This document shows, piece by piece, positions 38,301 through 64,000 of a stretch of DNA of 64,000 nucleotides. This stretch comes from a virus. The stretch lies in the IMG/VR virus record IMGVR_UViG_3300029915_000005. One strand, given 5' to 3'. Within the stretch, counting starts at the first letter, position 1; every line of letters begins with the position of its first letter. A program made the translations under genes and the position numbers. The notes under the pieces were generated by a model. That model made no database searches. It saw nothing but the letters and a program-made list of their open reading frames with translations, and was not told where the DNA came from.

Positions 38301-41300
38301 CTACTGGATTTTTGCAACAAATTCCAGACAGAGATGTTTTGAATGAATTAAATATTAATGATTATCCAGAACATTATAAAATTTTATTGACTACTGATGA
38401 TCTTCTATCTCCTGCTGGATGGTCAATAGTAGAAGCTATTAATGGAAATTGGGAATTTTTTAAAGTACAATTATATAATTTAACCAATAACTGGAAATAT
38501 GCTGATTGGTTTTCTTCAAACTATGTAAAGTCTACTCCAATGTTTGTTTTGAATAATATTGGAGAACTACCAAGCATAGTATACAATATAAATGATATTA
38601 TTCAGATTAATACCAATGGAAATAACAATAAAATAATTTATAAAGTTCTTTCCAATGAGTTAAATCCTGATATTTTGGAGTTAAATCCTATATTTATTCA
38701 AAACGGAACCATTCAATTTTTGTCGAATATTTATGATTTTGGATTTGACATTGACGCATTTGATACTACTCCTTTTGATGATGATCCATACATTGAACTT
38801 CGTATGATTACTCAAATACTAAATGATTATATTTTAACTGGAAGCAAAGATTTAACAACAGCAGCCGACGATGCATTTTATGCAGTGTTACAATATGTCA
38901 TTCATGAAAATAAAAATCTTGATTGGTTATTTAAAACTAGTTTTATTACTGTCAATTACATTAATAGAAATTTAAATATTCAAGGATCATATGAACCTGA
39001 TAATCAATCTATTATTGAAGACTTTGTAAATGAATCTACTCCTTTTCATACTCGTATCAGAGCATTTTATGATACTTACACTGCCAATGATTATGGAAAC
39101 ATTGGAACTGTAGATTTTGATTTGCCAGCACAGTATGATGAAAATTATGCCAATATTGTATTAAATTACAGCGATAATGTAAAACCAAACGGATTATTGC
39201 AATTAAGTCAATTTGGCCAAAATGTTGGAATGGCTGCTGATTTTGATTCTTTTTATATTACATCAACTGGCATTCCTATTATTTCTCAAAGTAATGATAG
39301 TATATCACAAGATTGGATTTTTGGATTTAAACAGCATGTGTATTCTGATTCTATTAATTTTAATACTGTTCCCAATAACATTGGGCCTATTGCTTCTGCA
39401 ATAGACGGTGTGCCATTCTACAGCGCAAATAGTGGAATTATGGAAACATTATACCAAACTGGAAACTTAATAAATTCACAAACATTTACAATTAATACTG
39501 TATGGCTAGATCAACAAAATAATATAGATACTGGTATAGGGCTACCAAATGAATTGGGAATTTGCCAATATCTATCAGATCCTTATTTATTATATAATAA
39601 AAATGTTTTAACACATAGTCCATTACTAGGATATGCTTGGGACGGAGTTCCTATATATGGTCCTTATGGATATGTAGAAAATAATGGAGACGGCGGAATT
39701 TTTATTAACACTAGCAGTTATAAGTTATTAACTACTCCTAGATTAGATAAAACTGGATTTTCAATTGTTAATGGTTTGCAATTGGCAAATTATAATATGC
39801 CAACTGGAGAATATATTGAAGATTATGAATATGTTCCTGGTTTTGGTAGTCTTGATCAAAATAATGGAAGATATTGCACAACACCAGAATATCCATTAGG
39901 AACATATGCATACTTTATTTCTGTCGATTCAATTTTTCTAAAACCAGTATATCCATATGTAATTGGGCCAACTTATTACGGAATTCCTTATGGATTAAAA
40001 TATTCATATGTTAATGGTATTAGTACACCAGTTTATCAAAATGGAAAAGTTGCTCTGCCTCAAATTAATATAGCAAATAGTGCCAATTTCATTAGAACAC
40101 CAGATGGTTCTGTTAGTTCTGATTCTTTAACTTTACAGAAACCAATTTATGCTCCTTGGAATGATAATTATATTAACAATAGTCAGTTGATTAGGCATCT
40201 CAATACCACAATAAGATTTGATAGAGTTAATAAAGAAATTGAATATTTAACTGCAAACACATCTTATCCAGCCAAAGAAGTATTATTTAATTCAAATTCT
40301 GGAATATTTATGCAATCGTTAGTTGCCAATGCCAACAGCGCAAATATTATAGATGCAAATATTTGGGGAGTAGCAAATTCAATGGCAATTGCAACTTCTA
40401 CAGCAATGAACCGAATAACAGCAGAATATTCGCCGTCTTCCAACATGTTTGCCAATCAAGCAAGATTACTAATGGACGGTATTGATTATTCTGGTGTAAT
40501 AGTAAAAAATGAAAATTTTGTTGATTCATATTCTGTTCCAACAGGTTCATTGTTTGATTTAGATGATTCTTTTGCAGCAAACACTTCATTAAATATTTCT
40601 TGGAGGCCAGGATTGATTACCAGTTCTGCATTATCCAGCGAAGTTTATAGATTTGGTAACTCATCTGGAGCATTCAATACCAAAACTAAACAATATATAT
40701 CTGCAAATTTAATGAGTGATGATATTTCTGCTCTGAGTATCAATTCTAGTAATTTTACATTGGAATTTTTCGTTAACTTCAGCAATTTAAATGCTGGCAA
40801 TATCATGGTTATGGTAGATACGAGAGATTATTACTATTCCCCATCTGGCTTAGTAATATATAAAAATAATGGCAATCTTTGTTTGGGATCAAATACTTCC
40901 ATGCCATTGTTATCATATAATTTACCACCATTACCACAAAATGAATGGCAATTTATTACTGCACAAGGATATACTACTAATATTAATGGAAATCTTTCTA
41001 GCAATCTATACATGTATTTGAATGGGCAATTAATAAATAGTATAATGCAATATTACAATTTTTCCGATTCAAATTTAACTTTAGGTGCTGATGTTATTGG
41101 AGGGAATGTATGTTGTGGATATATGGACGAAATCAGATTAACCAAAAATATTAATCGTTATGATTATAATGCTATAAATATTAATGTTCCATCCAGTCCA
41201 TTTCCAAGAGAGAATGATCCATATCTTAATATAATAGATACTCCTTTGTTGTTTGGATTTGAATCTTTTAATAATGAAGGTCCAGCGTCAATAACATTTA

Positions 41301-41443
41301 ATTCAATTAATTCGCAAACATTAATTAATGATTTATCATGGAATACTAAAACTCTAGAGCTTGTAAACTATAATGCTGGAAATGTTATTGTAGATTCTTC
41401 TCTAATAAACAATCAAAATTTTTCCGTAAAACTAAATCAATAG
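29342..41443 (+). CDS. giant gp7-like baseplate/virion structural protein (4033 aa)
   Basis: FLP, RQNYQLEP, INYQNY.W, N.WSR.N.W.H, RPWEML, FGD.GPVE.AW, WLFKTSF; FG-GAP-like, CBM-like, YHYH-like and LamG-like segments; follows gp6. Confidence 0.75.
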   Translation: MATTSTFLPPYLNTIPNKRFLNGTLDLLTSAPQLARFDGFIGRQFNNGKLLEGSYLLESTAPRQNYQLEPAFVTYDSNNNITNISNFIDLLNTCANKESITSSWNRLLTSGVYSWKGFTDTDKIINYQNYCWMGKSLAANNDWYWTSNIAINDISTNVIGKTNYTTLNGIKLLNGMIVSFNDTSEPAIVEGIGEEIILIPLSNIIIPTFANDQNNPPDYITINRSAVDLNLWSRSNLWVHKDTLNAIISILSITNNSEFQFAVRPILEFIPMVLFGHGKVGLTPATYYDAYTPDAISIIQGTTNFTVDGFQLNDGDSVIFAADKNQTVRDAIYDVNFVDPSITTQLSRLYPVQAATTSNIIAFGSQTIDGYITSVGDRILAVNQSNIPNGIYIVTNEDWKLAPDFISINPNENEIGVLVLSGLSLKGTYFIWIPFTHNFTIATNIPVIQLTQREIPTNNNCVLITSGNTYVDNTVSWGGSYWKIDSQIKTAINQSPLFDVFDLNNISFSNISVYPESSFAGSKLFSYEIGVGPNDPILGMPLTYGPIGNLNDVIFNNNYFTDSFSFTTSENVPESIVSGRAHIIDGITKIENVYDTWQYINSNLELYQNLVAVGSNVINFTGKLLIKSTPNAFQTQVFVDGIQLSSDEFSVAESNGIVTVTISSSITATSLIFIKILCSTPIANAWYDVPPSFESNSLGENLQSFSMSDIRNHATTSNINSNNTSDIINLQLNEFQGTPGSILFNESLSILPTLLLTNNNFDIDQAIKVAGNAYIIFKQKLINVFSQISNIQNLNNKQAVDQALQQLALGYTNSQPWNTSDMCFWGGNVQNVTISSIKKVNFNLQQTYIWDQPNYLALQVYLNCSQLINNIDYYTAGNILTITHALNTGDNLSIYEIPNTTGSFIPATPTKLGLSAAYVPQIYVDNTYQIPRNVLQGHDGSITECFNDYRDNLLLDYEIRVYNNLKVNNQLLTDIIQTHVPQNGRFRNELAYDFSPYSPSEQLTISQRMFFEWAAQYNINYTNFYDANNMFTWNWSSSLDKFSDSQPLLGYWRGIYNWFYDSENPNTRPWEMLNISVKPAWWDSIYGPGPYTGGNLILWNDIANGIIRNPSGITTSSYGIRYYNTNSVLSVIPVDSYGILLNPNQSIIGTYNDSAAENSFVFGDSGPVETAWKRSSIYPFSKLRSKILQNPLFMLGTLWDTNNYLPTVELNQFRFQNGLLGSIKQVALNSVDNNGLAQINSILNYSIEYLRNEGKDPSLLRTAIDNTNVNLVYNLGGYADANNLTVLATPNNPNDVGAAELISNEDYSLFLNESSPVGVLTYSGIIITTAANGQGYQISGYDKGNPYFMIYPALSFVSGPTIGISPNLFTYPKQFDSNPSIVSYNTIFGTQQEVINFIAGYEQFLISNGLNFNTNPTQDKIDYAAAALQFVKWSLVNWNNSQNISLIINPAASIIEYDALTGTLHDLTDSTSSLLLDVNGNIIDGKYLDVFRDINTVTITHQGGGVFSCIRANIINYEHRFTINNISSFNDTIYDPITGNRQLRLKISGQKTANWTGSLDFPGFLICTNQVNLWNPNQDYLIGSIVQWKNSNYVATTNIIGSSTFQYSQFSLITTKFTNSILPNLSLKATDYSHAYDPNYRPYINDLVSLRNNTIGYIERDWLNSLNIDLSAQSNFYRGWIKEKGTLNSLNSYSRGSTPGLNTQVILNEEYAMKVGEYGSDSRTGYGEVSLPPTVNSQNPLVISFVSSPNSEDTTTTQIVPFNLYEKSINWTNDFIQNFGNLKATTSSFESAGPVIPSRLITQSYQNIPGFEKSDEDSLFFSNVQTLINSTSQNSIIKIAENNGSFWLETNQISAGPNQWDIITFSPAITNILSITQLNPQTLSFNLTSNINAIINSVIIIDHVDPSANISIQGSFIVSDYFLQNGYANLIVATSNNILNGNIITYNPAWNSTSIYTSKSLRSNSIAESNISLSDTTRYVDKDNITWAEYELIAPYTNQITYPDVAFQLPITSVAYDDINQLLWSGKPSAIGNNGLVELRQLTENISSTDILVSVIGGSVYDIETIRPDTALLGSAVVCANGFAVATATSSNATANINNIGQIYIIKNNTNGLYPEITQILSADAVPAIYLNGANFGKNLAISDDGNWLYVVIDNFDGTGHGGINAYQLKTNANASSYTLAEPPNNTLIKVTTPIFNADSYSITVTVSVPNEIPIILIPHMDYSVNPFDPTDIFLFGNPIPNIVGTTVSVEGLSQYYAWVDTLVTPLGSNTNFGASISCDATGEVITVGAPDYNNGAVIIYRRIIENLYNPTTGVYTQTFPSLNSLKFELSQILNAPNSYDSQFGASVAIQNNQLLVGSPNSTINNKLNKGVIYCYSLDTQVQTQKNVPVANLTFPILPFRINNWITTNTSLDISSLLTNINSLSNYSGVTATLINSNIILTINETLHTSGLTPALIFWNIDSPLFNNGPLFSEFTLTNTLYSNSINSTNFGQNIKWIASDLFGEIENIGFNQVNTPDSTDGTYYDGGNTNFNETTNQYSQNLKIYQVLKSNRSWIHSNSDLLQPIVVFTKTISGINYPSIIYAADITNLFVIDSNNPTKSVEVFNNENFAHGWTVATAQEFPIDSTSISRAWIYDSITNIKLSDLEIVDLNAGILPGAIASDLDFICDNDPANYNTQKWNPGTLYNMGDRVIYNNQLYAALFSGKSGSIFNSSLWELLSLQKTFEAFGPSLWGSHQKGMTWFKTNNLKTVNAQLGNISERAANWNTWFPNSNIEVYEWVTSSVPPNSYISNDTNGFIIDINCPYTFDNSTKIYGFWVYNKSIPGSLHTVSTNQLISSLSDIQNSGIPMITAIDNNVISIWNINQFISNNTAILHIDYVVANGNNQLHNEFALISNDGKKSWYKTPIYSKFIDSLSGMTDLNQLVPDITLPINQQTGILINPQQSIFVDRIQAANIYFTVINQNLSNLAVASSSVISLLSASDPIPTTGFLQQIPDRDVLNELNINDYPEHYKILLTTDDLLSPAGWSIVEAINGNWEFFKVQLYNLTNNWKYADWFSSNYVKSTPMFVLNNIGELPSIVYNINDIIQINTNGNNNKIIYKVLSNELNPDILELNPIFIQNGTIQFLSNIYDFGFDIDAFDTTPFDDDPYIELRMITQILNDYILTGSKDLTTAADDAFYAVLQYVIHENKNLDWLFKTSFITVNYINRNLNIQGSYEPDNQSIIEDFVNESTPFHTRIRAFYDTYTANDYGNIGTVDFDLPAQYDENYANIVLNYSDNVKPNGLLQLSQFGQNVGMAADFDSFYITSTGIPIISQSNDSISQDWIFGFKQHVYSDSINFNTVPNNIGPIASAIDGVPFYSANSGIMETLYQTGNLINSQTFTINTVWLDQQNNIDTGIGLPNELGICQYLSDPYLLYNKNVLTHSPLLGYAWDGVPIYGPYGYVENNGDGGIFINTSSYKLLTTPRLDKTGFSIVNGLQLANYNMPTGEYIEDYEYVPGFGSLDQNNGRYCTTPEYPLGTYAYFISVDSIFLKPVYPYVIGPTYYGIPYGLKYSYVNGISTPVYQNGKVALPQINIANSANFIRTPDGSVSSDSLTLQKPIYAPWNDNYINNSQLIRHLNTTIRFDRVNKEIEYLTANTSYPAKEVLFNSNSGIFMQSLVANANSANIIDANIWGVANSMAIATSTAMNRITAEYSPSSNMFANQARLLMDGIDYSGVIVKNENFVDSYSVPTGSLFDLDDSFAANTSLNISWRPGLITSSALSSEVYRFGNSSGAFNTKTKQYISANLMSDDISALSINSSNFTLEFFVNFSNLNAGNIMVMVDTRDYYYSPSGLVIYKNNGNLCLGSNTSMPLLSYNLPPLPQNEWQFITAQGYTTNINGNLSSNLYMYLNGQLINSIMQYYNFSDSNLTLGADVIGGNVCCGYMDEIRLTKNINRYDYNAININVPSSPFPRENDPYLNIIDTPLLFGFESFNNEGPASITFNSINSQTLINDLSWNTKTLELVNYNAGNVIVDSSLINNQNFSVKLNQ

Positions 41444-48769: not shown

Positions 48770-49390
48770 ATGGCTATTTCAAATTCAACCCCACTATTAA
48801 ATAGCCAATTAAAAAGTGCTTATCGAATATTGGCCAAAGAATGCCATCCAGATGTTAATCCAAATGATCCTGAAGCGACTGAAAAATTTCAAAAATTACA
48901 AGAAAAATATAAAGATTGTTTGCAAGCCATTATTCAAAATAAAAAAATATATTGTGTAACAGTTATTATATCTTTACAAGATTCTATTTTGGGTTGTGAC
49001 AGATATTTTTCATCTAATGATGAAAAACGTAGATTCATATTAAAAATTCCACCTGGAATTATCAGCAATGACACTATAAAATATAGAAATATTCAGATGG
49101 AAGAAAATTCTTTAAGTGTTTTGGAAGTTAAAGTTATCGTTGACTTTCCACCAAACTACTTATATAAGAATGGAAAATTATTTAGGTCTCTATCAATTCC
49201 TTTTTGGAAATTGTTTTTCGGTGGAGAAAAAGTTTTTAATGGTCCAGATAATGCGAGAATCAGAGTCGTAATTCCACCCAAAACAAAATCTGGAACATTA
49301 TTCTATATCCCAAATGAAGGATTGCTGGATAAATTAACCAAAAAAAGAGAAATTTTATATATTAGAATTAAATCTTCAATATTTTGTTGA
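48770..49390 (+). CDS. dnaJ: DnaJ-family co-chaperone
   Basis: K.AYR.LA...HPD.N, F..LQE.Y; C-terminal ISL.D...G, IPPG, IPP.T.SG, IP.EG. Confidence 0.8.
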   Translation: MAISNSTPLLNSQLKSAYRILAKECHPDVNPNDPEATEKFQKLQEKYKDCLQAIIQNKKIYCVTVIISLQDSILGCDRYFSSNDEKRRFILKIPPGIISNDTIKYRNIQMEENSLSVLEVKVIVDFPPNYLYKNGKLFRSLSIPFWKLFFGGEKVFNGPDNARIRVVIPPKTKSGTLFYIPNEGLLDKLTKKREILYIRIKSSIFC

Positions 49391-49461
49391 CAATCACGCT
49401 ATATTTTGTTGACAATCGCGCCAAACAATGATAATATCTAAATATATCGAAAGGACAAAAC

Positions 49462-51714
49462 ATGCCAGAATTTAATAATCAATCATTTTTAATTAAGAAT
49501 ATCATTGATATGAGTTTTCAGTTGGCTATTGGTTTAAATCAAACCACTATCACTTCTGAACATATTTTATATATAGCAATTCAAAATTCTAAAGTAAAAG
49601 AATTTTTTAATAATCAAGGTATTGAAACTCAAAGTTTATTAAATGATATTTTTAATTACATCAAATCTCAATCCCATTTATTGAAAAATCAAATTTTTAA
49701 TGAAAATCCAGACGTTATGACTGGTCAAATTACTGCATCAGTTCAAATGATCATTGTTAATGCTGCAACTGACGCCCGAAAAAATAATCGTGAAATTTCA
49801 CATTATGATATATTTAACAATATTTTGAAAAATACTGAATCATATGCCAGTTATTTTATGACAAAATATGGAATTGATGAGGAAATGATTAAAAAAATGA
49901 ATGATGCTGTTGATATTAATAAATCAGCTTTGGATGAATTTTGTATTAATCTTAACGAAAAAGTAAAAAAGAATTATGATGTTCTTATTGGCAGAGAGAC
50001 AGAATTGTTCAGTATTGCTCATACTTTGGCAAAAAAGAAGAAGAGCAATGTTTTAATGATTGGCGATCCTGGAGTGGGAAAGTCGCAGATTGTGGAAGGT
50101 TTGGCACACAATATTAATATTGGAAAAGTACCCAAAATTCTAAAAGATAAGATTATTTTTAGTTTGGATGTGGGTGGTGTGCTGGCTGGTTGCAGATATC
50201 GCGGAGATTTTGAAGAAAAAATCAAAAATATTATTTCAGAATTAGTTGCAAATCCAAAAGCTATTTTATTTGTAGACGAAGCTCATCAGATGGATGCTGG
50301 TGAAGGAAAGAGTCAATCAGGTGTTGGTTTTTCAGCAATGTTGAAGCCAGAACTTTCTCGCGGAAACATTAAAGTTCTAGCAGCGACTACATGGGAAGGA
50401 TACCGTCAAACATTTGAAAAAGATTCTGCTTTGATGCGCAGATTTAGGGTTCTGAATATCGATGAGCCTTCTCATGAAGAAACTATTTTGATTCTTAATG
50501 GCAATAAACTTTCCATGGAGAAATTTCATCATTGCAAAATTAATCAAGATGCAATTAAAGCAGCCGTTGAATTAACTGGAAGATATCAAACTGATAGAAA
50601 ATTTCCAGATAAAGCAATTGATGTTATTGATAGCGCGTGCGCAAGAACTCAAGTTTTATCATTAAAAAATAAAATTGTTAATAGAGAATCTATAGTTGCT
50701 GAAGTTTCAGAAATCACTGGGATTCATATTAAAGATACTGATACAAAAACTTCAATGGATATTTTGACAATTGGAAGTATATTAAAAAATAAAGTATTTC
50801 ATCAAGATAACGCTATTGATTCTGTATCTGAAGGCTTGATTATTGCTCAATCTGGTCTGCGTGATCCAAATAAACCAATTGGAAGTTATGTATTTACTGG
50901 TCCTTCTGGCGTAGGAAAAACATTTCTCGCCAAGCAAATCGCTGCTCATATGAATATGTCATTACTTAAATATGATATGAGTGAATTTCAAGAAAAGCAT
51001 ACTCTTGCTCGTTTGATTGGAGCACCTCCTGGATATGTAGGGTTTGGTGATGGCGGGACAGGCGAAGGTCAACTTATTAATGATATTATCAAACATCCGA
51101 ATTCAGTAATTTTGTTCGATGAAATGGAAAAAGCACATCCTGATATTTTTACTATTCTTCTCCAATTATTAGATGATGGCAAAATTACAGGAACAACTGG
51201 AAAAGTAGCTGATTGCAGAAATTCAATTGTGGTAATGTGCAGCAATCTTGGCTCTAAAGAAAGTGAAAAATTGAATTTAGGATTCAATACCAATAATAGT
51301 GGAAAGAGTGAAACTTCAAAAGCAGTTGATTCATTTATGTTAACAGAACTTCGTGGAAGAATCACTGGTATTGTTGAATTTAACAAATTGGACGATATTA
51401 GCCTTCGTAGAATAGTTAATGAAAGAATTTTAGATATTGAATCTTTATTAAAGGATAAGAGCATTAAGCTCATCCCCAGTGAAAATTTAATAGATCATAT
51501 TCTTTCACTAAATACTGATAGTCAATATGGTGCTCGAAAGATTGCAAAAATTGTTGATTCAACAATTAAGTATCCTTTAAGCGTAAAATTATTAAATGGC
51601 GATATATCTAATAATTCAAATGTTCATTTGGATTGGTGTAATAATGTTTTAACTGTAAATCATTCTATTTCTACTGTTAAAATAATGAAAAAAGTTGCCC
51701 AACCAACAATTTAG
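49462..51714 (+). CDS. clpA: ClpA/ClpB-family double AAA+ chaperone
   Basis: GDPGVGKS, YRGDFEE, FVDEAH, DSALMRRF, PDKAID, GPSGVGKT, LIGAPPGYVG, DEMEKAHP, GAR. Confidence 0.88.
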   Translation: MPEFNNQSFLIKNIIDMSFQLAIGLNQTTITSEHILYIAIQNSKVKEFFNNQGIETQSLLNDIFNYIKSQSHLLKNQIFNENPDVMTGQITASVQMIIVNAATDARKNNREISHYDIFNNILKNTESYASYFMTKYGIDEEMIKKMNDAVDINKSALDEFCINLNEKVKKNYDVLIGRETELFSIAHTLAKKKKSNVLMIGDPGVGKSQIVEGLAHNINIGKVPKILKDKIIFSLDVGGVLAGCRYRGDFEEKIKNIISELVANPKAILFVDEAHQMDAGEGKSQSGVGFSAMLKPELSRGNIKVLAATTWEGYRQTFEKDSALMRRFRVLNIDEPSHEETILILNGNKLSMEKFHHCKINQDAIKAAVELTGRYQTDRKFPDKAIDVIDSACARTQVLSLKNKIVNRESIVAEVSEITGIHIKDTDTKTSMDILTIGSILKNKVFHQDNAIDSVSEGLIIAQSGLRDPNKPIGSYVFTGPSGVGKTFLAKQIAAHMNMSLLKYDMSEFQEKHTLARLIGAPPGYVGFGDGGTGEGQLINDIIKHPNSVILFDEMEKAHPDIFTILLQLLDDGKITGTTGKVADCRNSIVVMCSNLGSKESEKLNLGFNTNNSGKSETSKAVDSFMLTELRGRITGIVEFNKLDDISLRRIVNERILDIESLLKDKSIKLIPSENLIDHILSLNTDSQYGARKIAKIVDSTIKYPLSVKLLNGDISNNSNVHLDWCNNVLTVNHSISTVKIMKKVAQPTI

Positions 51715-56129: not shown

Positions 56130-56654
56130 ATGAGACTATATGAAATTAAAGAAGATCAAAAAATATACATTGATTTGGATGGAGTGCTTGTAGATTGTGT
56201 AAAAGCTGCCTCTGATTTCAATAATATTGATGTTCAAGATTTTATAGATTCTGGATATCATAATAAGTATTGGAAAAATTTTGTGGATCATGCAGATATT
56301 AAAAAAGAATTTACTAATATGGCTTGGGAAAGCAATGGTAAAAAAATATATCATTGGTTTACTCAGAGAGACATTCCAGTTACCATCTTAACTAGACCAG
56401 TTGGAGAACCACATACTAATGATTGTATTGCAGGTAAAAAATTATGGTTGAAAAAACATAATTTGGATATTCCTGTTATTTTTGAGAGAGATAAAGAAAA
56501 ATATGCTGGTGATGGTAATATTCTTATAGATGATGATAGTAGAAATATTGATGCGTGGAATAAAGCTGGTGGGGTGGGAATTCTCTATAAAAATGACAAA
56601 TATGAAGATGTAATTAAGAAATTGAATAAATTATTACAAAGCCACCCAATTTGA
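56130..56654 (+). CDS. 5'(3')-deoxyribonucleotidase-like HAD enzyme, tagged N-terminus
   Basis: MRLYEIKE; IDLDGVLVD, K..WL, K.KYA, LIDD...NI..W...GG.GI. Confidence 0.8.
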   Translation: MRLYEIKEDQKIYIDLDGVLVDCVKAASDFNNIDVQDFIDSGYHNKYWKNFVDHADIKKEFTNMAWESNGKKIYHWFTQRDIPVTILTRPVGEPHTNDCIAGKKLWLKKHNLDIPVIFERDKEKYAGDGNILIDDDSRNIDAWNKAGGVGILYKNDKYEDVIKKLNKLLQSHPI

Positions 56655-56691
56655 GTGGTTTTTCTTTTTGAATTAAATTATAAATATAAGT

Positions 56692-57210
56692 ATGAAGATT
56701 AATGAAGTCATTATCGATAATGAAAATGGATTAGGAGGAGTTTCATATAATCAAGAAATTGATTATCTTGGTCTTAGAGTGCTAATGTATCCATCCACAT
56801 TTTTAAGCCTAGCATATTATAGAAGTCGAAACGATTTAGGAAATGTTGACTATATAAAAAATTATATTAAAAATGGTGGGACTATTGGCGCTCCATTCCT
56901 TCAAATAAGTATTCCTAATAGATGGGAGAATGATGATTATTCTATTCCATCCATAGTTATTGGTCATGAAGGAAGAAATAGAATGATGGCACTCGATGAA
57001 CTTCAAGATGAAGGATTAGAACCTGATGTGCCAGTTGAAACTCATTTATTGTTTTATAAATATAGAGCCAGGCATTTAAAACCAGAATGGATAATACAAT
57101 TAAATAAACAACTTTATAATCAAAATACAGAATATGAATATCATTCTGGAGAAGTGGCTTATACAGATAGCCCTATAACCAAAGGGCCATTGTTTAAGGT
57201 TGTAAATTAG
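56692..57210 (+). CDS. ParB/Srx-like protein, tagged N-terminus
   Basis: MKINEV; I.APFL, GHEGRNRM.AL, VPV. Confidence 0.55.
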   Translation: MKINEVIIDNENGLGGVSYNQEIDYLGLRVLMYPSTFLSLAYYRSRNDLGNVDYIKNYIKNGGTIGAPFLQISIPNRWENDDYSIPSIVIGHEGRNRMMALDELQDEGLEPDVPVETHLLFYKYRARHLKPEWIIQLNKQLYNQNTEYEYHSGEVAYTDSPITKGPLFKVVN

Positions 57211-58100
57211 ATATAAAAGATTTTACTAAATTATCAATATTTTCTTTATTCCAATATGGAATTATTAATAATGGAATATTATTAATATTACAATAATTAT
57301 ATTTTATATAATCATTTTTCTTAGTAGATTCAAAATATTTTTGAAAAATAGGTTCATAATGTTGTTTTCCTTGGTATTCAATTAATCCTATAATTTTATT
57401 ATTTTTAATAATCCCTATATCAAAAGGTAATGGATATTTATTTTTGCATAATGTAATTCTTATTTGTTCATCAAATTCTATTGGTAATGATTCCAACGTT
57501 TTTATAATTTTTAATTCTCCAGAACTTCTTTTACATTTTGGACATTTTCTTCCCATTAAGTGTTTATTTGGGCTTTGCCAAAAAGAGCCATGCTTCTTAC
57601 ATATTATTTCAACTTTTTGGCGTGAAGTTAAATAATTTACATTATCATAAATAAATTCATTTTTGTGTATGATAATAGCTTTTGTTATAAATTCTTTTGT
57701 ATTGCTTGTTTTTGTTTTAGAAATACTGTTAAATCCACATTGTGGACAACCAATTTTTTGTAAATGCACGCCGGGGGCTTGTTTAAAAATTCCATGTTCC
57801 TTACATTTTATATCCATTTTCTTTTTGGCGTTGTAATAAGTTTTAGAAATATAAGAATATTTAAAATTATGAATAATATTTGCAGAGTTAACAAATTCTG
57901 TAAATGTTCTATTAAATCCACAGCATTTTGGGCAACCATTTCCTGATAAATGTGCATGAGAAGATTGCAAAAATTCTCCATGAATTGGGCAAATAATTAT
58001 TAATTTGTTTTTTGCATTAATGTATATAGATTTACTATAATTATATTTAAAATTATGAATTTGATTTTGATATAAAATATGCAGTAGTATAAATAGTCAT
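57194..58100 (-). pseudogene. DUF723-repeat/PD-(D/E)xK endonuclease, frameshifted near codon 14
   Basis: ATG 58100 gives MTIYTTAYFISKSNS*; shifted frame resumes IHNFKYNYSKSIY... into ORF 57194..57970. Confidence 0.72.
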
Positions 58101-58172
58101 AGCTGAATGACCTCCAGTGGTCTTTAGAGCGAGTAGATGTCGAAATCATCGTGACTCGCATTTGTATTTATA
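58101..58172 (-). promoter_or_regulatory. late promoter plus conserved structured 5' leader, copy 3
   Basis: TATAAATA caaat GCGAGT cac GATG atttcga CATC t ACTCGC tctaa aGACC actgga GGTC attcagct ATG. Confidence 0.8.
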
Positions 58173-58193
58173 TGAAAAAGAATAAATATAAGT

Positions 58194-61100
58194 ATGAGAT
58201 TACAAAATTTGTTTGAAGAAAAAATAAAACAAACAACTGCAACAATTTTTAGCGGTGGGTTTCACCCATTCCTTCCACAACATTTATATTGCTGGGAATA
58301 TTTGATTTCAAAATTTCCAAATGCACATCATTATATAGCTTCCACTAATAATATAAGTGAGCGACCATTTTCATTTAAGCAAAAACAATTTTTAGCAGTG
58401 CAAGCTGGCATACCTAAAAATGGATTTGTACAAGTAACAAGTCCTTATAAAGCATTGGAGATAACTAGTAAATATGATTCAAACAATACTATTGTTATAT
58501 TTGGTTTAAGTGAAAAAGATGCAGAAAGACTCGGACCAACGATAAAGAAAGATGGGACCCTGTCATTTTTACTACCATATCCTGGGCCTTCTACTCCACT
58601 AGAAACTTTGAATAAACATGCATATTATGTAATTATTCCTGTCCATAAGTATAGAGTTTTGGGACAAGAGATAACCTCTGCTTCTCAAATAAGAAAGATG
58701 TATACTTCTTCTAATGAAAGCGATAGATATACTATTATTCGAGAATTATATCCAAATTCTATGAAAGTTGGAGAGATTAAAAAAATATTTGATCAAGTTT
58801 TGCTTGCTCCAATAAATGAAGATATATATGACGTGATTTATAGACCAAAAAACGTTTATAATATAGAAGCGAATGAATATCCAGAATTTATGTTAGATGG
58901 GGATGTTCAACGTATGATATATGATTTGCACCAACAGGAAGAGATTGATGCTGGCTCTGATATTTGGGATAGAATGGATAGTGTCTGGTATAAGTTACAA
59001 AATGTTTCTATAAAAAAATTAGATAACATAAATGATTTAGATGAAGATGATGACCAATATTCTGATGAAATAACTCCTTTTCCTCCAATAGTATTAACAA
59101 AAAGAGGGGAAATATTAGATGGATTTCATAGGACTATTTCTGCTAAAATTCGTGGTGATAAAACAATTAGAGCATATGTTCCTTGCAAAAAACCAATTAA
59201 TGAATCTAAAGCTGGATTAGAATATAAATTAAAACTTGGAAACAAAAAATCTGTAATAGATTCAAGTGGCTGGCTATTTCCAGATAAAACTTTTGTTCCA
59301 CTTGTTCCAGGAACAACTCACGAAACAATGGCTACAAGATTGGGATATAATGGTTATGAAGGAATATATAAAATTGGATGTGTAAGAGTTTCCCGTCCAA
59401 TTTATGCTCCGGGTAAAATTTATATAGAAACAATACAAAAATTGAGTGATAGTACTTATAAGCTAATTATGAATATTATTCATAGAATAAAAGTGGATGT
59501 TAAAATAGATGTTACTGTTGGATCAGGTAATGGATATTTTCAACATTATAAATGGGATTTCAAAGATAGACAATTGCATAAAACAAATTTTTATGAGTCA
59601 GTTATAAATGAAGAACCTGATTTTAATTATACAAAATTTAATAATAGAGATGAAGAGCTTTCAAGATTAAAATTTGATTATTCAGTAATACCCAGTAATA
59701 ATGACGGAATTGGTGGATTTTGGATAATTGTAAATAACTCCTCTGGTGTTAGTGTGGCAGATATTGATTTGGTGGAAGTTAATTCAAAAACATTAGTAAT
59801 TTCTTTTATTAGAATTAATTTAAAATGGAAAGGTACTGGACTTGGGCAAATTCTGTATGACAAAGCGATTAAAAAAGCCAAACAATTAGGATATAAATAT
59901 TTTCGATCAGATACTGATAGATCAGCGGCTGCTGAAAAAGCGTGGAAAAGATTGGCAGCAAGATATACAGTTAAGTACAAAGAAGGCAAAGAATTTAATA
60001 AAGGGTATTATGAAATTGATCTAAGTAAAGTTCAATTAAAAGAATCATTTGATTATTCCTATAGAGCTAAATTATTTCAACTTAGACCACAAATGATTAA
60101 AGCTGCACAAAAAATATATGATAAATGGGAAGGAGGAGAAGTTGGTTTGTGTGATAGTATTGCAGAGTCAATTTCTGATTGTGTATTAAAAAATATAAAG
60201 AATATTGATTCATACGTGGTTGGCCATAAAAATCCAAAATTGCATGAACTTCATTTTTGGGTAAGAGTAGATTTTAATAATGGAGAAAAATATTATGATA
60301 TTGACTTACCATTTGGAAAATATGAAAGATATGATAATAAAAAACATTATTTTGTAAAAATACCAAATGTAAAATTTCAATTAAATGATTTATTAATATA
60401 TCAATCATCTTTAAATTATAATAAAGCTCCTTGGGAAATAAGAAATAGTTATACTCCACATAAATCAGATAGTTATTTTATCAGCGAATCTATTGCACAA
60501 GAAGTTATAAAAGTTGGTAAAAGCAATGATGAAATTATAAAATTAATCAAAGAAGCTACAAAATATAAATTATATGTTCCTACATTTACAGCGCAAAAAG
60601 AATTTGGTTGGATATTACAAACAGGAAATAAAGGTAAAATAAGTAAAATGGCTATGATGTATGTTAACAACATGCCTGTCGCTTGGATCATTTATTGGAA
60701 ACATGGAAGTTTTATGTCTGACTCTAATCCAAGAACAGAAAATGACAAATATTGGAGATTTACTAAAAAAGAATTTAGAAATATAGGTTATTATCATAAA
60801 TTAAAAAAAGCTTTATGGAATATAATTAATGAGGCACCAGATTTTGGCTACAAAAGTTTTAATGATAGAGATGAAGATATAAGCAAATTAAAGTGGGAAA
60901 TTGATAAAAGACCATTTAAAGATTGGAATAGTGATGAGGAACACCTAGGAATAATAATTAGGGCAAGAAATCCAGAAACTAATGAAGTAGAAGGTTTTAT
61001 AACTTCTAATGAGATAACCAAGAAAACATTAAAAATTTCAAGAAGTCAATTAACATCTAATCATAATTGGCAATCGACTGGTCTTGGACAAATGTTATAT

Positions 61101-61211
61101 GATAAACTTATTAACGTTGCAAAAGAATTAGGTTTTGATTATGTAGACAGTGATTATATTTTATCTGTGGATGCTAGAAAAGCTCTGAAAGATATCCAGT
61201 GCAAAAATTAA
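58194..61211 (+). CDS. multi-enzyme polyprotein: HIGH-type nucleotidyltransferase, ParB/Srx, unknown, GNAT, Cys-His-Asp papain/transglutaminase-like, GNAT-like, GNAT
   Basis: GGFHPF..QH/SASQIR; PPIVL...LDGFHR; WKGTGLGQILY; GLCD/HFWV/YDID; EFRNIGY; WQSTGLGQMLY. Confidence 0.7.
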   Translation: MRLQNLFEEKIKQTTATIFSGGFHPFLPQHLYCWEYLISKFPNAHHYIASTNNISERPFSFKQKQFLAVQAGIPKNGFVQVTSPYKALEITSKYDSNNTIVIFGLSEKDAERLGPTIKKDGTLSFLLPYPGPSTPLETLNKHAYYVIIPVHKYRVLGQEITSASQIRKMYTSSNESDRYTIIRELYPNSMKVGEIKKIFDQVLLAPINEDIYDVIYRPKNVYNIEANEYPEFMLDGDVQRMIYDLHQQEEIDAGSDIWDRMDSVWYKLQNVSIKKLDNINDLDEDDDQYSDEITPFPPIVLTKRGEILDGFHRTISAKIRGDKTIRAYVPCKKPINESKAGLEYKLKLGNKKSVIDSSGWLFPDKTFVPLVPGTTHETMATRLGYNGYEGIYKIGCVRVSRPIYAPGKIYIETIQKLSDSTYKLIMNIIHRIKVDVKIDVTVGSGNGYFQHYKWDFKDRQLHKTNFYESVINEEPDFNYTKFNNRDEELSRLKFDYSVIPSNNDGIGGFWIIVNNSSGVSVADIDLVEVNSKTLVISFIRINLKWKGTGLGQILYDKAIKKAKQLGYKYFRSDTDRSAAAEKAWKRLAARYTVKYKEGKEFNKGYYEIDLSKVQLKESFDYSYRAKLFQLRPQMIKAAQKIYDKWEGGEVGLCDSIAESISDCVLKNIKNIDSYVVGHKNPKLHELHFWVRVDFNNGEKYYDIDLPFGKYERYDNKKHYFVKIPNVKFQLNDLLIYQSSLNYNKAPWEIRNSYTPHKSDSYFISESIAQEVIKVGKSNDEIIKLIKEATKYKLYVPTFTAQKEFGWILQTGNKGKISKMAMMYVNNMPVAWIIYWKHGSFMSDSNPRTENDKYWRFTKKEFRNIGYYHKLKKALWNIINEAPDFGYKSFNDRDEDISKLKWEIDKRPFKDWNSDEEHLGIIIRARNPETNEVEGFITSNEITKKTLKISRSQLTSNHNWQSTGLGQMLYDKLINVAKELGFDYVDSDYILSVDARKALKDIQCKN

Positions 61212-61254
61212 AGCATGATGGAGAAAATTATTTAAGTATTGAATTGAGTAAAAT

Positions 61255-61524
61255 ATGAGAATAAGCGAAGTTAACAATTCGACGTTAGATATAACTAAAT
61301 TGAAGTGGAAAGGAGAACTTCAAAAGAAATCGTATCAATTGAGAGTTAGCGGAGAAGGATATGGCGAAGTTGGTATGTTTTTAACAACCAATAATAAAAA
61401 TGATTGGAAAATTTTTTATGTATTTGTAGATAATGATTGGAAGAATACAAATTTGAAACATATGATGTATGTAAAAATGAAAGAAATTGCTAAAAAATAC
61501 GGAGCAAAATTACATGCTGCTTAA
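61255..61524 (+). CDS. short degenerate GNAT-like protein, tagged N-terminus
   Basis: MRISEV; DITKLKW shared with polyprotein GNAT; VFVD.DWKNTNL..MMY. Confidence 0.5.
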   Translation: MRISEVNNSTLDITKLKWKGELQKKSYQLRVSGEGYGEVGMFLTTNNKNDWKIFYVFVDNDWKNTNLKHMMYVKMKEIAKKYGAKLHAA

Positions 61525-62191
61525 TGAATTTGACAAATCGAAAGGTTTTTCAGCTTATGTAAAAGAAGATGAGACTAAAATTTTAATATTCTTAAATAAG
61601 CATTGCAGTGAAATTATGTCTTTGTATAGAGAATATGGAAAAGTATTGTATCGCGGCATCACACGATATTTTGGCAGTAATATATATAATTTCAAAGATG
61701 GAGATGTATTTTTCGGAAAATCCCCATCTGATAGACACCCAATAGATATACCATCTTCAGTACAGAAGCAAATAGATAGTAAATTACAAAAAAGTGGGTT
61801 TGAAGCATTAAGATCAAACAGCATTTTTTGTTGTTCTTCTAAACTATCAGCGCAAAAATATGGTGACCTACATATTATATTTCCATTGGATGGATTTTCA
61901 TATACATGGTGTAATACTGCTATTGATTTATATGACGAATATGTAAGAGCTTTGACTCCCACTCCTTGGGGTGAGACACCATCACAAGAAGATATTAATA
62001 AAGCAGAAATATTTAAAGAAAATTTATATAAGCTTTCTTCAACTGATTTTATTAGAGATTATGGTTTCAAGAATACAGATTTAACTCATGCAATTATTAG
62101 AAATAATGAAATTTTAATTCATGGTGACTATATCGCAATGAGCGAGAAATTAGGAAATAAAATAATATTTAGTAATAGGAGAAGTATATAA
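61514..62191 (+). CDS. ADP-ribosyltransferase-like paralogue 2
   Basis: MLLNEF; LYRG, RSNSIFC, A..YG, NEILIHG. Confidence 0.5.
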   Translation: MLLNEFDKSKGFSAYVKEDETKILIFLNKHCSEIMSLYREYGKVLYRGITRYFGSNIYNFKDGDVFFGKSPSDRHPIDIPSSVQKQIDSKLQKSGFEALRSNSIFCCSSKLSAQKYGDLHIIFPLDGFSYTWCNTAIDLYDEYVRALTPTPWGETPSQEDINKAEIFKENLYKLSSTDFIRDYGFKNTDLTHAIIRNNEILIHGDYIAMSEKLGNKIIFSNRRSI

Positions 62192-62628
62192 TGAATAACT
62201 TAGAAATGAGTCTGAAAGTGGCGACTGCAACTGTTTTTCATTTAGGAATTAAATTTCATATTGGGCATTTTAATATAACTGGTCCAAGATTTTTCGAGTT
62301 ACATTTATTGCTTGAAAAAATATATCAAAATCTTGAAAGTAATTTTGACAGTATTGGTGAGCAACTTAGAGCATTGGATATATTTGTTCCATCGTCCGTA
62401 AATGAATTACTTAGTTTATCAGTTATAGAAGATTTTCAAGAAGTATTGCCAGCAAATGAAATGATTCATGAATTATTGATTGACAATGATAAATTATTGG
62501 AAATGCTAACTGAAGTTGATAAATTGGCAGTAAATCATATTGGTCTTCAAAATTATATTGAAGGATTAGCAGATCAACAAGAAAAGTTTGGTTGGTTTTT
62601 AAGAGCAACATTACAAGCAGTAAAATAA
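62191..62628 (+). CDS. dps: Dps ferritin-like DNA-protection protein
   Basis: HFNITGP.F.ELH...E.IY, D.IGE..RAL, EK..WFL. Confidence 0.85.
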   Translation: MNNLEMSLKVATATVFHLGIKFHIGHFNITGPRFFELHLLLEKIYQNLESNFDSIGEQLRALDIFVPSSVNELLSLSVIEDFQEVLPANEMIHELLIDNDKLLEMLTEVDKLAVNHIGLQNYIEGLADQQEKFGWFLRATLQAVK

Positions 62629-63228
62629 ATGAAAATATGTGAACTACATATCGATGCTTCTGCTTTTGAACAGCAAGGATTAATTCTTAAAAAAGCTTTG
62701 GAAGAAGTGTCAGTATTATGCTCAGAATTTTTAAAATTTTATGAAGAAGCTGGACCAATGTATCATGGATTTCAATCAGCACCAAGTAATATTTTTGTAG
62801 GGGAACCACATACAGATAGAAAACCATTATCGCTTACTTATAAAGAACAATATGAGATAGATAAAAAATTATCATTGGCAGGATTTCATCAATTGCGTGG
62901 CAATAGTTTGTTCTGTATAGGAAATATTACAACAGCATCTGAGTATGGTGCAGTTTATCAAATTTTTCCAAAGAATGGTTTTAGATATACTTGGAGTGAT
63001 TTTTGCGATTTAGTTACAGATATAAGATATACAGAAATGATGTATGATCTTCATTCTTTAAGTCCCAATGATTTTGCTGATAAGTATGAATTTAGGGAAA
63101 ATATGGGATTATCATTGGCTTTACAACAAGGAAAAGAAATATATCTTGGTGGAGAATTTATTGCAATATCAGAATTAATGGTAACTAGACATTCAAATAC
63201 ATATTTACAGTGGACAAAAACTTTATGA
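62629..63228 (+). CDS. ADP-ribosyltransferase-like paralogue 3
   Basis: MKICEL; MYHG, RGNSLFC, A.EYG.VY.IFP, KEIYL.G. Confidence 0.5.
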   Translation: MKICELHIDASAFEQQGLILKKALEEVSVLCSEFLKFYEEAGPMYHGFQSAPSNIFVGEPHTDRKPLSLTYKEQYEIDKKLSLAGFHQLRGNSLFCIGNITTASEYGAVYQIFPKNGFRYTWSDFCDLVTDIRYTEMMYDLHSLSPNDFADKYEFRENMGLSLALQQGKEIYLGGEFIAISELMVTRHSNTYLQWTKTL

Positions 63229-64000
63229 AAATAAACGAAATCAGTAAAAAAATAAAGATTGGAATGCATCCCTCAAATGAGCCAGAAGATAAAATTGTTC
63301 AGTTCATTAAGAAAAACTGTTCTCAAATTGTAAAAGTTTATGAAAACAGTCATAGTAATTTTTTATTCAGTGGGAAAGAGTCTTATAGTGATGTATTTTT
63401 TGGCAAACCTATTAATAATAGAGCACCACTGGGAACAGACCGCAAGATCAATAATAAATTAAATAGTGTTCTAAGACAAGTTGGATTTAAAGCACGACGA
63501 GATAATAGTATTTTTACTACTTCTATGGAAGTTACAGCGCAGGAATATGGCAAAGTATATATAATTTTTCCATTGAATGGTTTTGACTATTCGTGGTGTG
63601 CTCTTGCTGAAGATTTAACTATGGAGTTTGATATTGGCGAAAAAAAATATAGTGTCTCCAGAGAGAATAATGAATTTTACAATGATTTGATTACATTGCT
63701 GCCACAAGAGTTTGTTCAAAAATATCATTTTAAAAATAATGAAGGATTTGAATATGCATTGACAAATGGATTTGAAATTTTGATACACGGAAGTTATGTT
63801 GCAATTAGCGAAGAATCTTCTTTATTAGAAATAATATTACCATTTTATAGATTTAATGAAGATAACGATTTAGAAGAATCAGCATCGTGCGGATCAACTA
63901 GTTCTGGATCGATTGCAACTGTCAACGGAACAAACACTCCTCCATCTGGGCAATTTTTTGGTGGAGATCCTAATAGTTCAGTATATGGAAAAATTAAGAG
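63225..64000 (+). CDS. ADP-ribosyltransferase-like paralogue 4 with a fused downstream module; 3'-truncated by the window
   Basis: MKINEI; LFSG, RDNSIFTTS, A.EYG.VYIIFP, FEILIHG, then DLEE|SASCGSTSSGSIA; open to window end. Confidence 0.55.
   Translation, partial: MKINEISKKIKIGMHPSNEPEDKIVQFIKKNCSQIVKVYENSHSNFLFSGKESYSDVFFGKPINNRAPLGTDRKINNKLNSVLRQVGFKARRDNSIFTTSMEVTAQEYGKVYIIFPLNGFDYSWCALAEDLTMEFDIGEKKYSVSRENNEFYNDLITLLPQEFVQKYHFKNNEGFEYALTNGFEILIHGSYVAISEESSLLEIILPFYRFNEDNDLEESASCGSTSSGSIATVNGTNTPPSGQFFGGDPNSSVYGKIK

Follow-up and report, generated by a model that had tools for sequence, protein, structure and literature searches.

The open reading frame at positions 58194–61211 on the plus strand of the window, i.e., the whole 64,000-nt stretch of IMG/VR record IMGVR_UViG_3300029915_000005 that was analysed, encodes a multi-module polyvalent polyprotein (P0001; 1005 amino acid residues plus stop codon) with a hydrophobic-x-Glu (h-x-E) motif at each module boundary. 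We propose, with a probability of about 0.6, that P0001 is a polyvalent effector polyprotein that enters the prohead and is then cleaved in trans by the head protease. The phage that carries this gene is best explained as a T4-like giant phage, of the same type as PA5oct/Rak2. An earlier note on this DNA had placed the end of the gene at position 61258, which overshoots the stop codon at which the reading frame closes (61211).

The seven motifs that had been noted before were all found in P0001 where they had been placed. The N-terminal leader motif LFE↓E (the arrow marks the predicted cleavage position) covers residues 6–9. The junctions, all on the plus strand, are PINE↓D (residues 206–210; INE at 58812–58820), PINE↓S (residues 334–338; INE at 59196–59204), VINE↓E (residues 470–474; INE at 59604–59612), QLKE↓S (residues 614–618; LKE at 60036–60044), FISE↓S (residues 762–766; ISE at 60480–60488), and IINE↓A (residues 877–881; INE at 60825–60833). 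The tripeptide I-N-E occurs four times in P0001 versus 0.36 expected, and this number was reached in 0 of 2000 shuffled sequences. The pattern [ILVF]-x-E-[ASDE] was also enriched (11 versus 3.7 expected, p about 0.001). The generic [IL]-x-E pattern was weakly enriched (15 sites versus 9.8 in shuffles, p about 0.05) and was also present within folded domains (residues 54, 105, 182, 526, 656, and 683). The junction codons vary between ATA, ATT, and ATC for Ile and between GAA and GAG for Glu. Because the codons differ and the P2 position varies widely, the constraint on the junctions acts on the protein and not on the DNA. Judged by sequence and structural model, the exposed L/I-x-E sites of P0001 are predicted sites of the kind found in gp21 substrates. 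The similar junction LEE↓SAS that the earlier note had reported in the open reading frame starting at 63225 was confirmed at residue 216 (nt 63870).

P0001 consists of seven modules with at least five distinct folds, as resolved by profile, model, and fold searches in a phage context. The 8-residue leader MRLQNLFE (58194–58217), which ends in h-x-E, precedes the first strand of the first fold. Module 1 (residues 9–209; 58218–58820) is a putative HxGH (HIGH-type) nucleotidyltransferase (NTase) with a Rossmann-like fold and the motif GGFHPFxxxH. Its modelled fold (pLDDT above 90) is consistent with this type of enzyme, its profile matched PPAT/NMNAT weakly (E about 0.006–0.009, across 55 residues), and the alignments of relatives to this module stop at residues 203–211. 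Module 2 (residues 210–337; 58821–59204) is ParB/Srx-like and contains the conserved motif ILDGxHR. One of its seven members matched ParB_N weakly (E 0.004), and its weak PDB profile matches include SbnI, a ParB nuclease, and sulfiredoxin. For the labels HIGH-type NTase and ParB/Srx, which these two units had been given previously, the motifs are thus in place and the profile support is weak. Module 3 (residues 338–473; 59205–59612) belongs to a conserved alpha/beta family with the pattern GW..PDG..H..R..W, for which no match was found in the PDB, Pfam, or the Protein Atlas. A feature search of the Protein Atlas yielded nothing informative for two of the modules.

Module 4 (residues 474–617; 59613–60044) is a GNAT acetyltransferase that opens with EPDFNY, and module 7 (residues 881–1005; 60834–61208) is a second GNAT, a paralogue of module 4 that opens with APDFGY. 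The sequence bears out the observation that these two paralogous peptides directly follow junction sites. Pfam model PF00583 matched P0001 in two stretches with 35.3 bits versus a cut-off of 20.7, and Foldseek matched the GNAT modules to many GNAT structures with a probability of 1.00. The label of these two units as GNATs therefore stands. The label "GNAT-like" for residues 766–881 does not, as module 6 (residues 766–880; 60489–60833) has no family assignment and no confident model (pLDDT 24–50). Among the proteins compared, this module has a single relative (residues 249–355 of P0021).

Module 5 (residues 618–765; 60045–60488) carries a Cys-His-Asp triad that is invariant in the alignment, in agreement with the label given to this unit before. 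In the AlphaFold model, the Cys is located at the N-terminus of a helix, and the His and Asp on adjacent strands. From this predicted fold, there is moderate support for a transglutaminase/papain-like thiol enzyme. Transglut_core clusters were at the top of the Atlas fold search (TM up to 0.49), structural matches to NAT, LapG, PMT-C3, and SseI had Z of about 5 (at most 5.6), and the weak structural matches also include deamidases and acyltransferases. Foldseek found no match of the model in the PDB at E ≤0.001, and a search for shorter relatives of this module returned none. A PDB profile match to 3f44 (E 0.001) was rejected because the catalytic Cys was not aligned. No Pfam model matched the HxGH NTase, Cys-His-Asp, and no-family modules, and P0001 contains no HEXXH (zincin) domain and no Pfam peptidase match.

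The comparison of motif positions with AlphaFold domain boundaries, which the earlier note had proposed as a check, placed the motifs between predicted domains, in low-confidence coil. In the model of full-length P0001, pLDDT fell below 50 at residues 207–221, 335–351, 466–482, and 751–776, and there was a coil dip at residues 610–620. A separate model of the Cys-His-Asp domain showed disorder at both flanking motifs. Residues 787–888 also had pLDDT below 50, but as this stretch is an unmodelled module, the site at residues 877–881 is not informative.

A search of 1.8 billion proteins returned 1648 relatives of P0001. Module order was compared in the best 150 of these 1648 relatives, which together with others made 159 proteins, and the alignment of internal modules was built on N-terminally anchored collinear relatives. 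The same modules were found in many orders and numbers in the 159 proteins. Of 50 internal GNAT-module starts, 39 were preceded by [ILVMF]-x-E at P3–P1, versus a background of 1.9% per position. P3 was hydrophobic at every GNAT junction with Glu at P1, P1′ was mostly Ser, and P2 and P4–P10 were variable. The same h-x-E motif directly precedes the Cys-His-Asp modules of relatives. In an all-against-all comparison, 47.5% of alignment breaks were located within 5 residues of h-x-E, versus 20% for random positions. Homologues therefore do exchange modules at the motifs, a possibility that the earlier note had put forward for checking. The positional orthologue in a syntenic 147-kb contig, P0009, has other modules joined by the same motif. 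The modules of relatives include PF18765 as well as two ART-type modules (PF18760 in P0010 and FYHGT in P0009). The Cys-His-Asp module is carried by about 11 of the 159 proteins, and proteins devoid of it, such as pure GNAT arrays and NTase-GNAT fusions, show the motif and leader to the same extent. A search of a phage collection with the P0001 gene at the DNA level gave no match, the corresponding protein search gave only three weak records, and a scan of viral contigs with the P0001 protein gave no match.

Relatives in which a GNAT, Cys-His-Asp, or NTase module comes first begin with a leader of 8–9 residues of the M-x-L-x-E-L-F-E type. In this first position, the h-x-E leader occupies the place of the junction, as in MKLCELFE↓SPDFGY. 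The leader of P0001 (MRLQNLFE↓E) resembles T4-type propeptides, which comprise about 7–19 residues and end in the cleavage motif. The adjacent 1153-residue protein retains a copy of such a leader internally (MRFSEIKE↓S). The association between leader and junction motif is weak: 65 of 76 family members without the leader still keep the junction motif, so the leader is not needed to explain the motif. The claim that one tag loads the whole cassette consequently does not extend to the family as a whole.

The window is linked to the cultured phages PA5oct, Vibrio phage 2.275.O, and Phosso by homology of the baseplate wedge and by synteny of the wedge with a giant protein. All three phages (3/3) encode Peptidase_S77, the T4-type head protease, and at least 569 metagenomic loci from the group contain it as well. 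The major capsid proteins of the three phages open with M-x-x-L-F-E↓S and carry three additional h-x-E sites downstream, and leaders of this kind and h-x-E sites are also present on protease, small core, and scaffold proteins of the relatives. The PA5oct capsid protein starts with MSNRLFE↓S, and its mature part is preceded by the three additional h-x-E sites. The PA5oct protease starts with MARQLYE↓Y, the small core protein with MKINDIITE↓G, and the scaffold contains 28 h-x-E sites in 368 residues. The pattern M-x-x-L-F-E↓S ... LLE↓G ... VLE↓N ... L-x-E↓S/A is kept in 48 metagenomic capsid proteins of the group. These data strengthen the connection to a head protease that the earlier note had drawn. 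For P0001 itself, this connection would run through relatives with about 32–35% sequence identity in a baseplate protein. Of note, a simple leader pattern also matches many small early open reading frames of PA5oct (in two of six genome chunks), and the pattern is therefore not specific to PA5oct virion proteins.

The following course of events is proposed. P0001 would be a chain of autonomous modules in the order HxGH NTase, ParB/Srx-like, no-family, GNAT, thiol enzyme, no-family, and GNAT, each preceded by a short, exposed linker that ends in hydrophobic-x-Glu, or, in the case of module 1, by MRLQNLFE. The leader would bring the precursor into the core of the assembling prohead, similar to the capsid-targeting sequence of T4. 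A T4-type serine head protease (Peptidase_S77, specific for L/I-x-E) would then cut after the Glu of each junction. The released enzymes would remain in the head, enter the host together with the DNA, and presumably act on host targets there. As each module has its own site, modules could be gained, lost, or exchanged there, as is seen in the relatives.

This proposal joins two known ideas, namely polyvalent proteins and the capsid targeting and gp21 processing of T4. In T4, gp21 cuts after L/I-x-E, 10-residue capsid-targeting sequences bring foreign proteins into the head, and the head carries and injects enzymes such as the ADP-ribosyltransferase Alt (PMC9026906). Like P0001, the T4 internal proteins (IPI–III) and Alt have a short leader at the N-terminus that ends in hydrophobic-x-Glu, and the ART-type modules of P0010 and P0009 are reminiscent of the Alt cargo. 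However, each T4 cargo protein is a single domain with its own leader, whereas here one polypeptide unites up to seven or more unrelated enzymes and has a site at each boundary. Furthermore, gp21 mainly trims terminal propeptides in T4, whereas the junctions of P0001 are predicted sites, recognized by their sequence. An Asp at P1 prevents processing in T4 but leaves targeting intact. In the giant phages phiKZ, 201phi2-1, and SPN3US, diverged gp21-like proteases (gp175/gp245) recognize a three-residue motif and cleave after its Glu, and many of the internal head proteins undergo processing and ejection (PMC9026906, PMC10052503). Their motif is S/A/G-x-E instead of hydrophobic-x-E, and the cleavage mostly strips long N-terminal propeptides, whereas the P0001 sites would part enzyme domains.

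Multi-effector virion proteins have already been published as polyvalent proteins by Iyer, Burroughs, Anand, de Souza, and Aravind in 2017 (PMC5512222), who also drew the analogy to viral polyproteins. Similar to these, P0001 is a phage polypeptide in which many catalytic domains of unrelated kinds are united and extensively shuffled. The GNAT, ParB-like, and NTase modules of P0001 fall within the polyvalent-protein repertoire of GNAT, ParB, nucleotidyltransferase, and ART domains (PMC5512222). Polyvalent effectors are predicted to be delivered with the DNA (PMC5512222), and the same is predicted here for P0001. Their release has been ascribed to embedded peptidase domains, zincin-like or other, and not to the head protease (PMC5512222). 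In contrast to the P0001 family, neither conserved inter-domain head-protease motifs nor a shared leader are described in that work.

It is conceivable, but unlikely, that P0001 stays uncleaved as a multi-enzyme protein, packaged or cytoplasmic, and that its h-x-E linkers and leader serve for binding or targeting. They could make contact with the scaffold or core, or they could act as a signal that recruits chaperones, like the N-terminus of T4 gp23, which reportedly has a role in GroEL targeting (PMC10052503). DnaJ and ClpB-like genes near P0001 (48770–51714) are in line with such a signal. The leader is common to the capsid proteins of the group and could serve their assembly or folding, and one polyvalent protein, the virion RNA polymerase of N4, is packaged without processing (PMC5512222). 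However, the conservation is limited to P3 and P1, which is the exact specificity of gp21, and does not extend over a wider binding surface. The motif is also present at every module boundary regardless of the fold, and it saturates the scaffold proteins of this group, which would be expected of a degradation signal.

The motifs could also be true processing sites for another protease, either the embedded Cys-His-Asp module or a cytoplasmic protease of phage or host, which we consider quite improbable. Release by an embedded peptidase is the published model (PMC5512222), and the papain/transglutaminase-like topology of the Cys-His-Asp module is shared by a group that includes the peptidases LapG and vasohibin. 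This module is nevertheless rare among the proteins examined (about 11 of 159), and proteins without it have the motif and leader just as often. Its structural matches are weak by Z and TM alike and extend to deamidases and acyltransferases, and related phages bear the same motif on their capsid, scaffold, and protease. An origin of the motif as a mere by-product of joining, through short-sequence recombination or AT-rich composition, is already disfavoured and appears very improbable. At the 30% G+C of this genome, Ile, Asn, Glu, and Lys are common, and the generic [IL]-x-E pattern is only marginally enriched in P0001. Such an origin is at odds with the retention of Glu at P1 and a hydrophobic residue at P3 while P2 and the codons vary, and with the frequency of the motif at GNAT junctions relative to background (39/50 versus 1.9%). 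It would also leave aside the presence of the motif at N-termini, where nothing is joined, and the consistent use of K-x-A by a second lineage.

Cleavage of a packaged P0001 by the head protease thus remains our preferred reading, and it may be extended, tentatively and with less confidence, to a large clade of T4-like giant phages. In this clade, the head maturation protease might double as a polyprotein processor, with a portable M-x-L-x-E-L-F-E leader, shared with the capsid protein, and h-x-E linkers providing a plug-and-play cargo of injected effectors. If this is true, the leader and h-x-E linkers constitute a sequence rule for the recognition of injected effector arsenals in uncultured giant-phage genomes and explain the cassette-wise assembly and exchange of counter-defence or takeover enzymes. 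The question of how polyvalent proteins are processed would then be answered by a trans-acting and not an embedded protease, and a natural modular tag-and-linker system would be at hand to load foreign proteins into phage heads.

The second lineage, which consistently has K-x-A in place of h-x-E, might follow the same logic, and this would imply co-evolution of linkers and protease. It consists of Tunturi_5-like proteins and giant proteins of 1900–5000 residues. Among the proteins of cultured phages, a single one was found to contain the same GNAT module (33% identity), namely gp273 of the Tunturiibacter phage Tunturi_5, a multi-module protein of 1489 residues annotated as MutT/NUDIX hydrolase. 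Its junctions are K-x-A↓S/A/T, in contrast to h-x-E in P0001. Searches of the Tunturi_5 genome gave no match to Peptidase_S77, S78, or a ClpP-type protease, nor to the HK97-type capsid family. The Gp23 family matched neither Tunturi_5 nor any of 14 control genomes, so its absence is uninformative. Genes next to that of gp273 are annotated as coding for minor head and minor tail proteins.

The P0001 gene is located outside the head module, in an island of enzyme genes. A T4 late-promoter box (TATAAATA) is present upstream of it at 58088–58095. However, TATAAATA occurs 20 times in the window versus 18.9 expected and is thus no commoner than by chance, and the box gives no indication of late expression. 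At 48770–51714, the window encodes DnaJ and ClpB-like proteins.

The polyprotein (P0001) is encoded on the plus strand at 58194..61211 and comprises 1005 amino acid residues; the end coordinate 61258 given in the earlier note lies past the stop codon. All seven boundary motifs that the note had claimed were found at their positions. The generic triplet [IL]-x-E occurred at 15 sites compared to 9.8 in shuffled sequences, which is a marginal enrichment, while I-N-E was observed 4 times (0.36 expected) and [ILVF]-x-E-[ASDE] 11 times (3.7 expected). Further [IL]-x-E triplets, at residues 54, 105, 182, 526, 656, and 683, lie within confidently predicted secondary structure. Because the codons vary from one junction to another, the constraint acts on the protein.

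The positions of the motifs were compared with a full-length AlphaFold model, built from an alignment of 31 collinear relatives (mean pLDDT 75.8). The low-confidence segments 207–221, 335–351, 466–482, and 751–776, and a dip in coil at 610–620, coincided with the claimed junctions. Residues 787–888 likewise had pLDDT <50, but they correspond to an unmodelled module without alignment depth. The leader (residues 1–10) has pLDDT 55 and lies ahead of the first strand (14–20). When the Cys-His-Asp domain was modelled alone (pLDDT 78), disorder was predicted at both of its flanking motifs. The peptide [SAE]-P-D-F-G-Y-x-x-F-N-N-R-D, which follows the GNAT junctions (59613–59650 and 60834–60870), is the best-conserved part of this module throughout the family; despite this conservation it was predicted with low confidence (pLDDT <50 at 476–482). 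If the junctions are cleaved, [SAE]-P-D-F-G-Y would form the new N-terminus of the GNAT module.

Both clear GNAT units proposed earlier are secure. The first module, a putative HIGH-type NTase, carries the signature G-G-F-H-P-x-x-x-x-H, and the ParB/Srx-like second module has an ILDG-x-HR motif, but profile matches of the former to PPAT/NMNAT and the matches of the latter were weak. Residues 338–473 gave no match in the PDB, Pfam, or the Atlas, and the label "GNAT-like" for residues 766–880 is without support. The triad of the Cys-His-Asp module is invariant, and in the model Cys is located at a helix N-terminus, with His and Asp on adjacent strands. Its closest fold neighbours were Transglut_core clusters (TM up to 0.49); neighbours at Z about 5 (arylamine N-acetyltransferase, LapG, the Pasteurella toxin C3 domain, SseI, and protein-glutaminase) include unrelated folds too.

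The junction motif is shared by relatives in which the modules are rearranged. A word-indexed search returned 18 such relatives, and an exhaustive search of 1.8 billion representatives returned 1648. Architectures were derived from 159 proteins (the best 150 of the 1648 together with the word-indexed set), which reach 5005 residues and include GNAT arrays, NTase-GNAT, and Cys-His-Asp-unknown-GNAT combinations. When [SAE]-P-D-F-G-Y, a conserved peptide, was used to mark the starts of GNAT modules, [ILVMF]-x-E directly preceded 39 of 50 internal starts, compared to a background of 1.9% per position. Wherever P1 was Glu at these junctions, P3 was hydrophobic; P2 and upstream positions were variable, and P1′ was mostly Ser. 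The same hydrophobic-x-Glu (h-x-E) motif precedes Cys-His-Asp modules and also occurs in leaderless family members. When a GNAT or Cys-His-Asp module comes first, the junction is replaced by a leader of 8–9 residues ending in h-x-E, as in M-K-L-C-E-L-F-E↓S-P-D-F-G-Y (arrow, presumed cut point), so internal junctions and N-terminal leaders are positionally equivalent. NTase-first proteins, including P0001, bear the same type of leader. The expectation that homologues swap domains at the motifs was borne out by all-against-all BLAST, which used no module definitions: 47.5% of alignment breaks fell within 5 residues of h-x-E, compared to 20% for random positions. P0009, a positional orthologue that occupies the corresponding place in a syntenic, related contig of 147 kb, contains other modules joined by the same motif.

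The window (30% G+C) encodes T4-like baseplate genes, a 4033-aa virion structural protein, SbcCD, DnaJ, and a ClpB-like ATPase. Its baseplate wedge protein shares 32–35% identity with its counterparts in Pseudomonas phage PA5oct, Vibrio phage 2.275.O, Sinorhizobium phage Phosso, and Rak2-like coliphages. The 4033-aa protein (29342–41443) is syntenic with PA5oct gp355 (3857 aa), NVP2275O_424 of 2.275.O, and Phosso gene 294, each located immediately 3′ of the wedge gene; this order of wedge and giant structural gene is common to the window and these three phages. All three phages also carry a gene for a Peptidase_S77 protease (T4 gp21-type), and relatives of this protease are encoded at ≥569 metagenomic loci. 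T4 gp21 cleaves after L/I-x-E; capsid-targeting sequences of ten residues direct proteins into T4 heads and are cut off afterwards (PMC9026906).

The PA5oct head module is T4-like. Its capsid protein begins M-S-N-R-L-F-E↓S, with three more h-x-E before the conserved mature part; the protease begins M-A-R-Q-L-Y-E↓Y, and a 73-aa virion protein M-K-I-N-D-I-I-T-E↓G. Between the protease and capsid genes lies unannotated gp330 (L096:5725-6831), a coiled-coil scaffold whose 368 residues include 28 h-x-E sites and which ends in E-E-L-R-R-L-A-G-I-K. The PA5oct record carries no ESI-MS/MS note for gp330, which fits the expectation for a degraded scaffold. Capsid proteins of this group from metagenomes (48 sequences) retain M-x-x-L-F-E↓S, L-L-E↓G, V-L-E↓N, and L-x-E↓S/A. 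Since these capsid proteins start with M-x-x-L-F-E, the polyprotein leader shares their L-F-E ending.

The most economical reading, to which we assign a probability of about 0.6, is that the junctions are where a T4-type head protease cuts. The precursor would enter the prohead by means of its leader, and cleavage at the junctions would leave separate enzymes in the head. This link is drawn from the protease and head genes of related phages. The case is weakened by the position of the gene in an enzyme island, by an upstream late-promoter box that is no more frequent than expected, and by junction motifs in family members that have no leader. Mechanistically, the precedents are the T4 internal proteins and Alt, yet these are single-domain, whereas P0001 is multi-module. 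The gp21-like proteases of phiKZ and SPN3US also cleave after Glu, mostly removing N-terminal propeptides, but at S/A/G-x-E (PMC10052503) rather than at h-x-E. P0001 also conforms to the polyvalent-protein concept put forward earlier, in which release is proposed to occur through embedded peptidases; inter-domain head-protease motifs and a shared leader are not described there (PMC5512222). It is improbable that the embedded thiol module, or another protease, does the processing, since that module is missing from most relatives that bear the motif. An alternative of somewhat higher, though still low, probability is that the protein stays uncut and that its leader and linkers act in assembly or in recruiting a chaperone. 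That the motif is a neutral by-product of module joining seems very unlikely.

In a second lineage (P0037, P0041, P0065, P0079, and gp273 of the cultured Tunturiibacter phage Tunturi_5), K-x-A↓S replaces h-x-E before the same GNAT module, and the junction is thus lineage-specific and separate from the GNAT fold. These proteins, in which K-x-A followed by S, A, or T joins the modules, include giants of 1891–5005 residues; gp273 lies at L005:2590-7059. No S77, S78, or ClpP-type head protease was detected in the Tunturi_5 genome. A search of it for HK97/Gp23-type capsid families found none, but the Gp23 search also matched none of 14 control genomes. These sequences hint that junction type may co-vary with the maturation protease.

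The polyprotein gene sits within an island of enzyme genes (56130–64000 and L002:6329-15702), several products of which are T7-kinase-like. Most island genes begin M-[KRLN]-[IL]-x-E-hydrophobic (MRISEV, MLLNEF, MKICEL, MKINEI, MLLREF, MRLDEY, MNLNEL, MKIDEI); the window's genes for replication and for chaperones do not have this start. Directly upstream of the polyprotein, on the opposite strand, is a DUF723 homing-endonuclease-like gene (57194–57970). The intergenic region contains TATAAATA boxes on both strands within 58088–58172 (58088 on plus, 58165 on minus), and the frequency of the late-promoter box upstream of the polyprotein gene was not above chance. About 6 kb past the window end, the same phage encodes a 1153-aa multi-domain protein (L002:10016-13477) with DUF4116 repeats, NUDIX, and GP88-like domains. 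Its internal leader copy, M-R-F-S-E-I-K-E↓S near residues 672–684, looks like a trace of gene fusion. The 147-kb contig (Logan ERR3200795_37364, L099-L102) has the same DnaJ/ClpB-like/polyprotein/ferritin synteny as this phage, and in P0009 an ART-like F-Y-H-G-T module follows the NTase. Farther along, this contig has Pfam matches to the anti-defence families Tad3 and Acb1, GTP cyclohydrolase I, and family B DNA polymerase.
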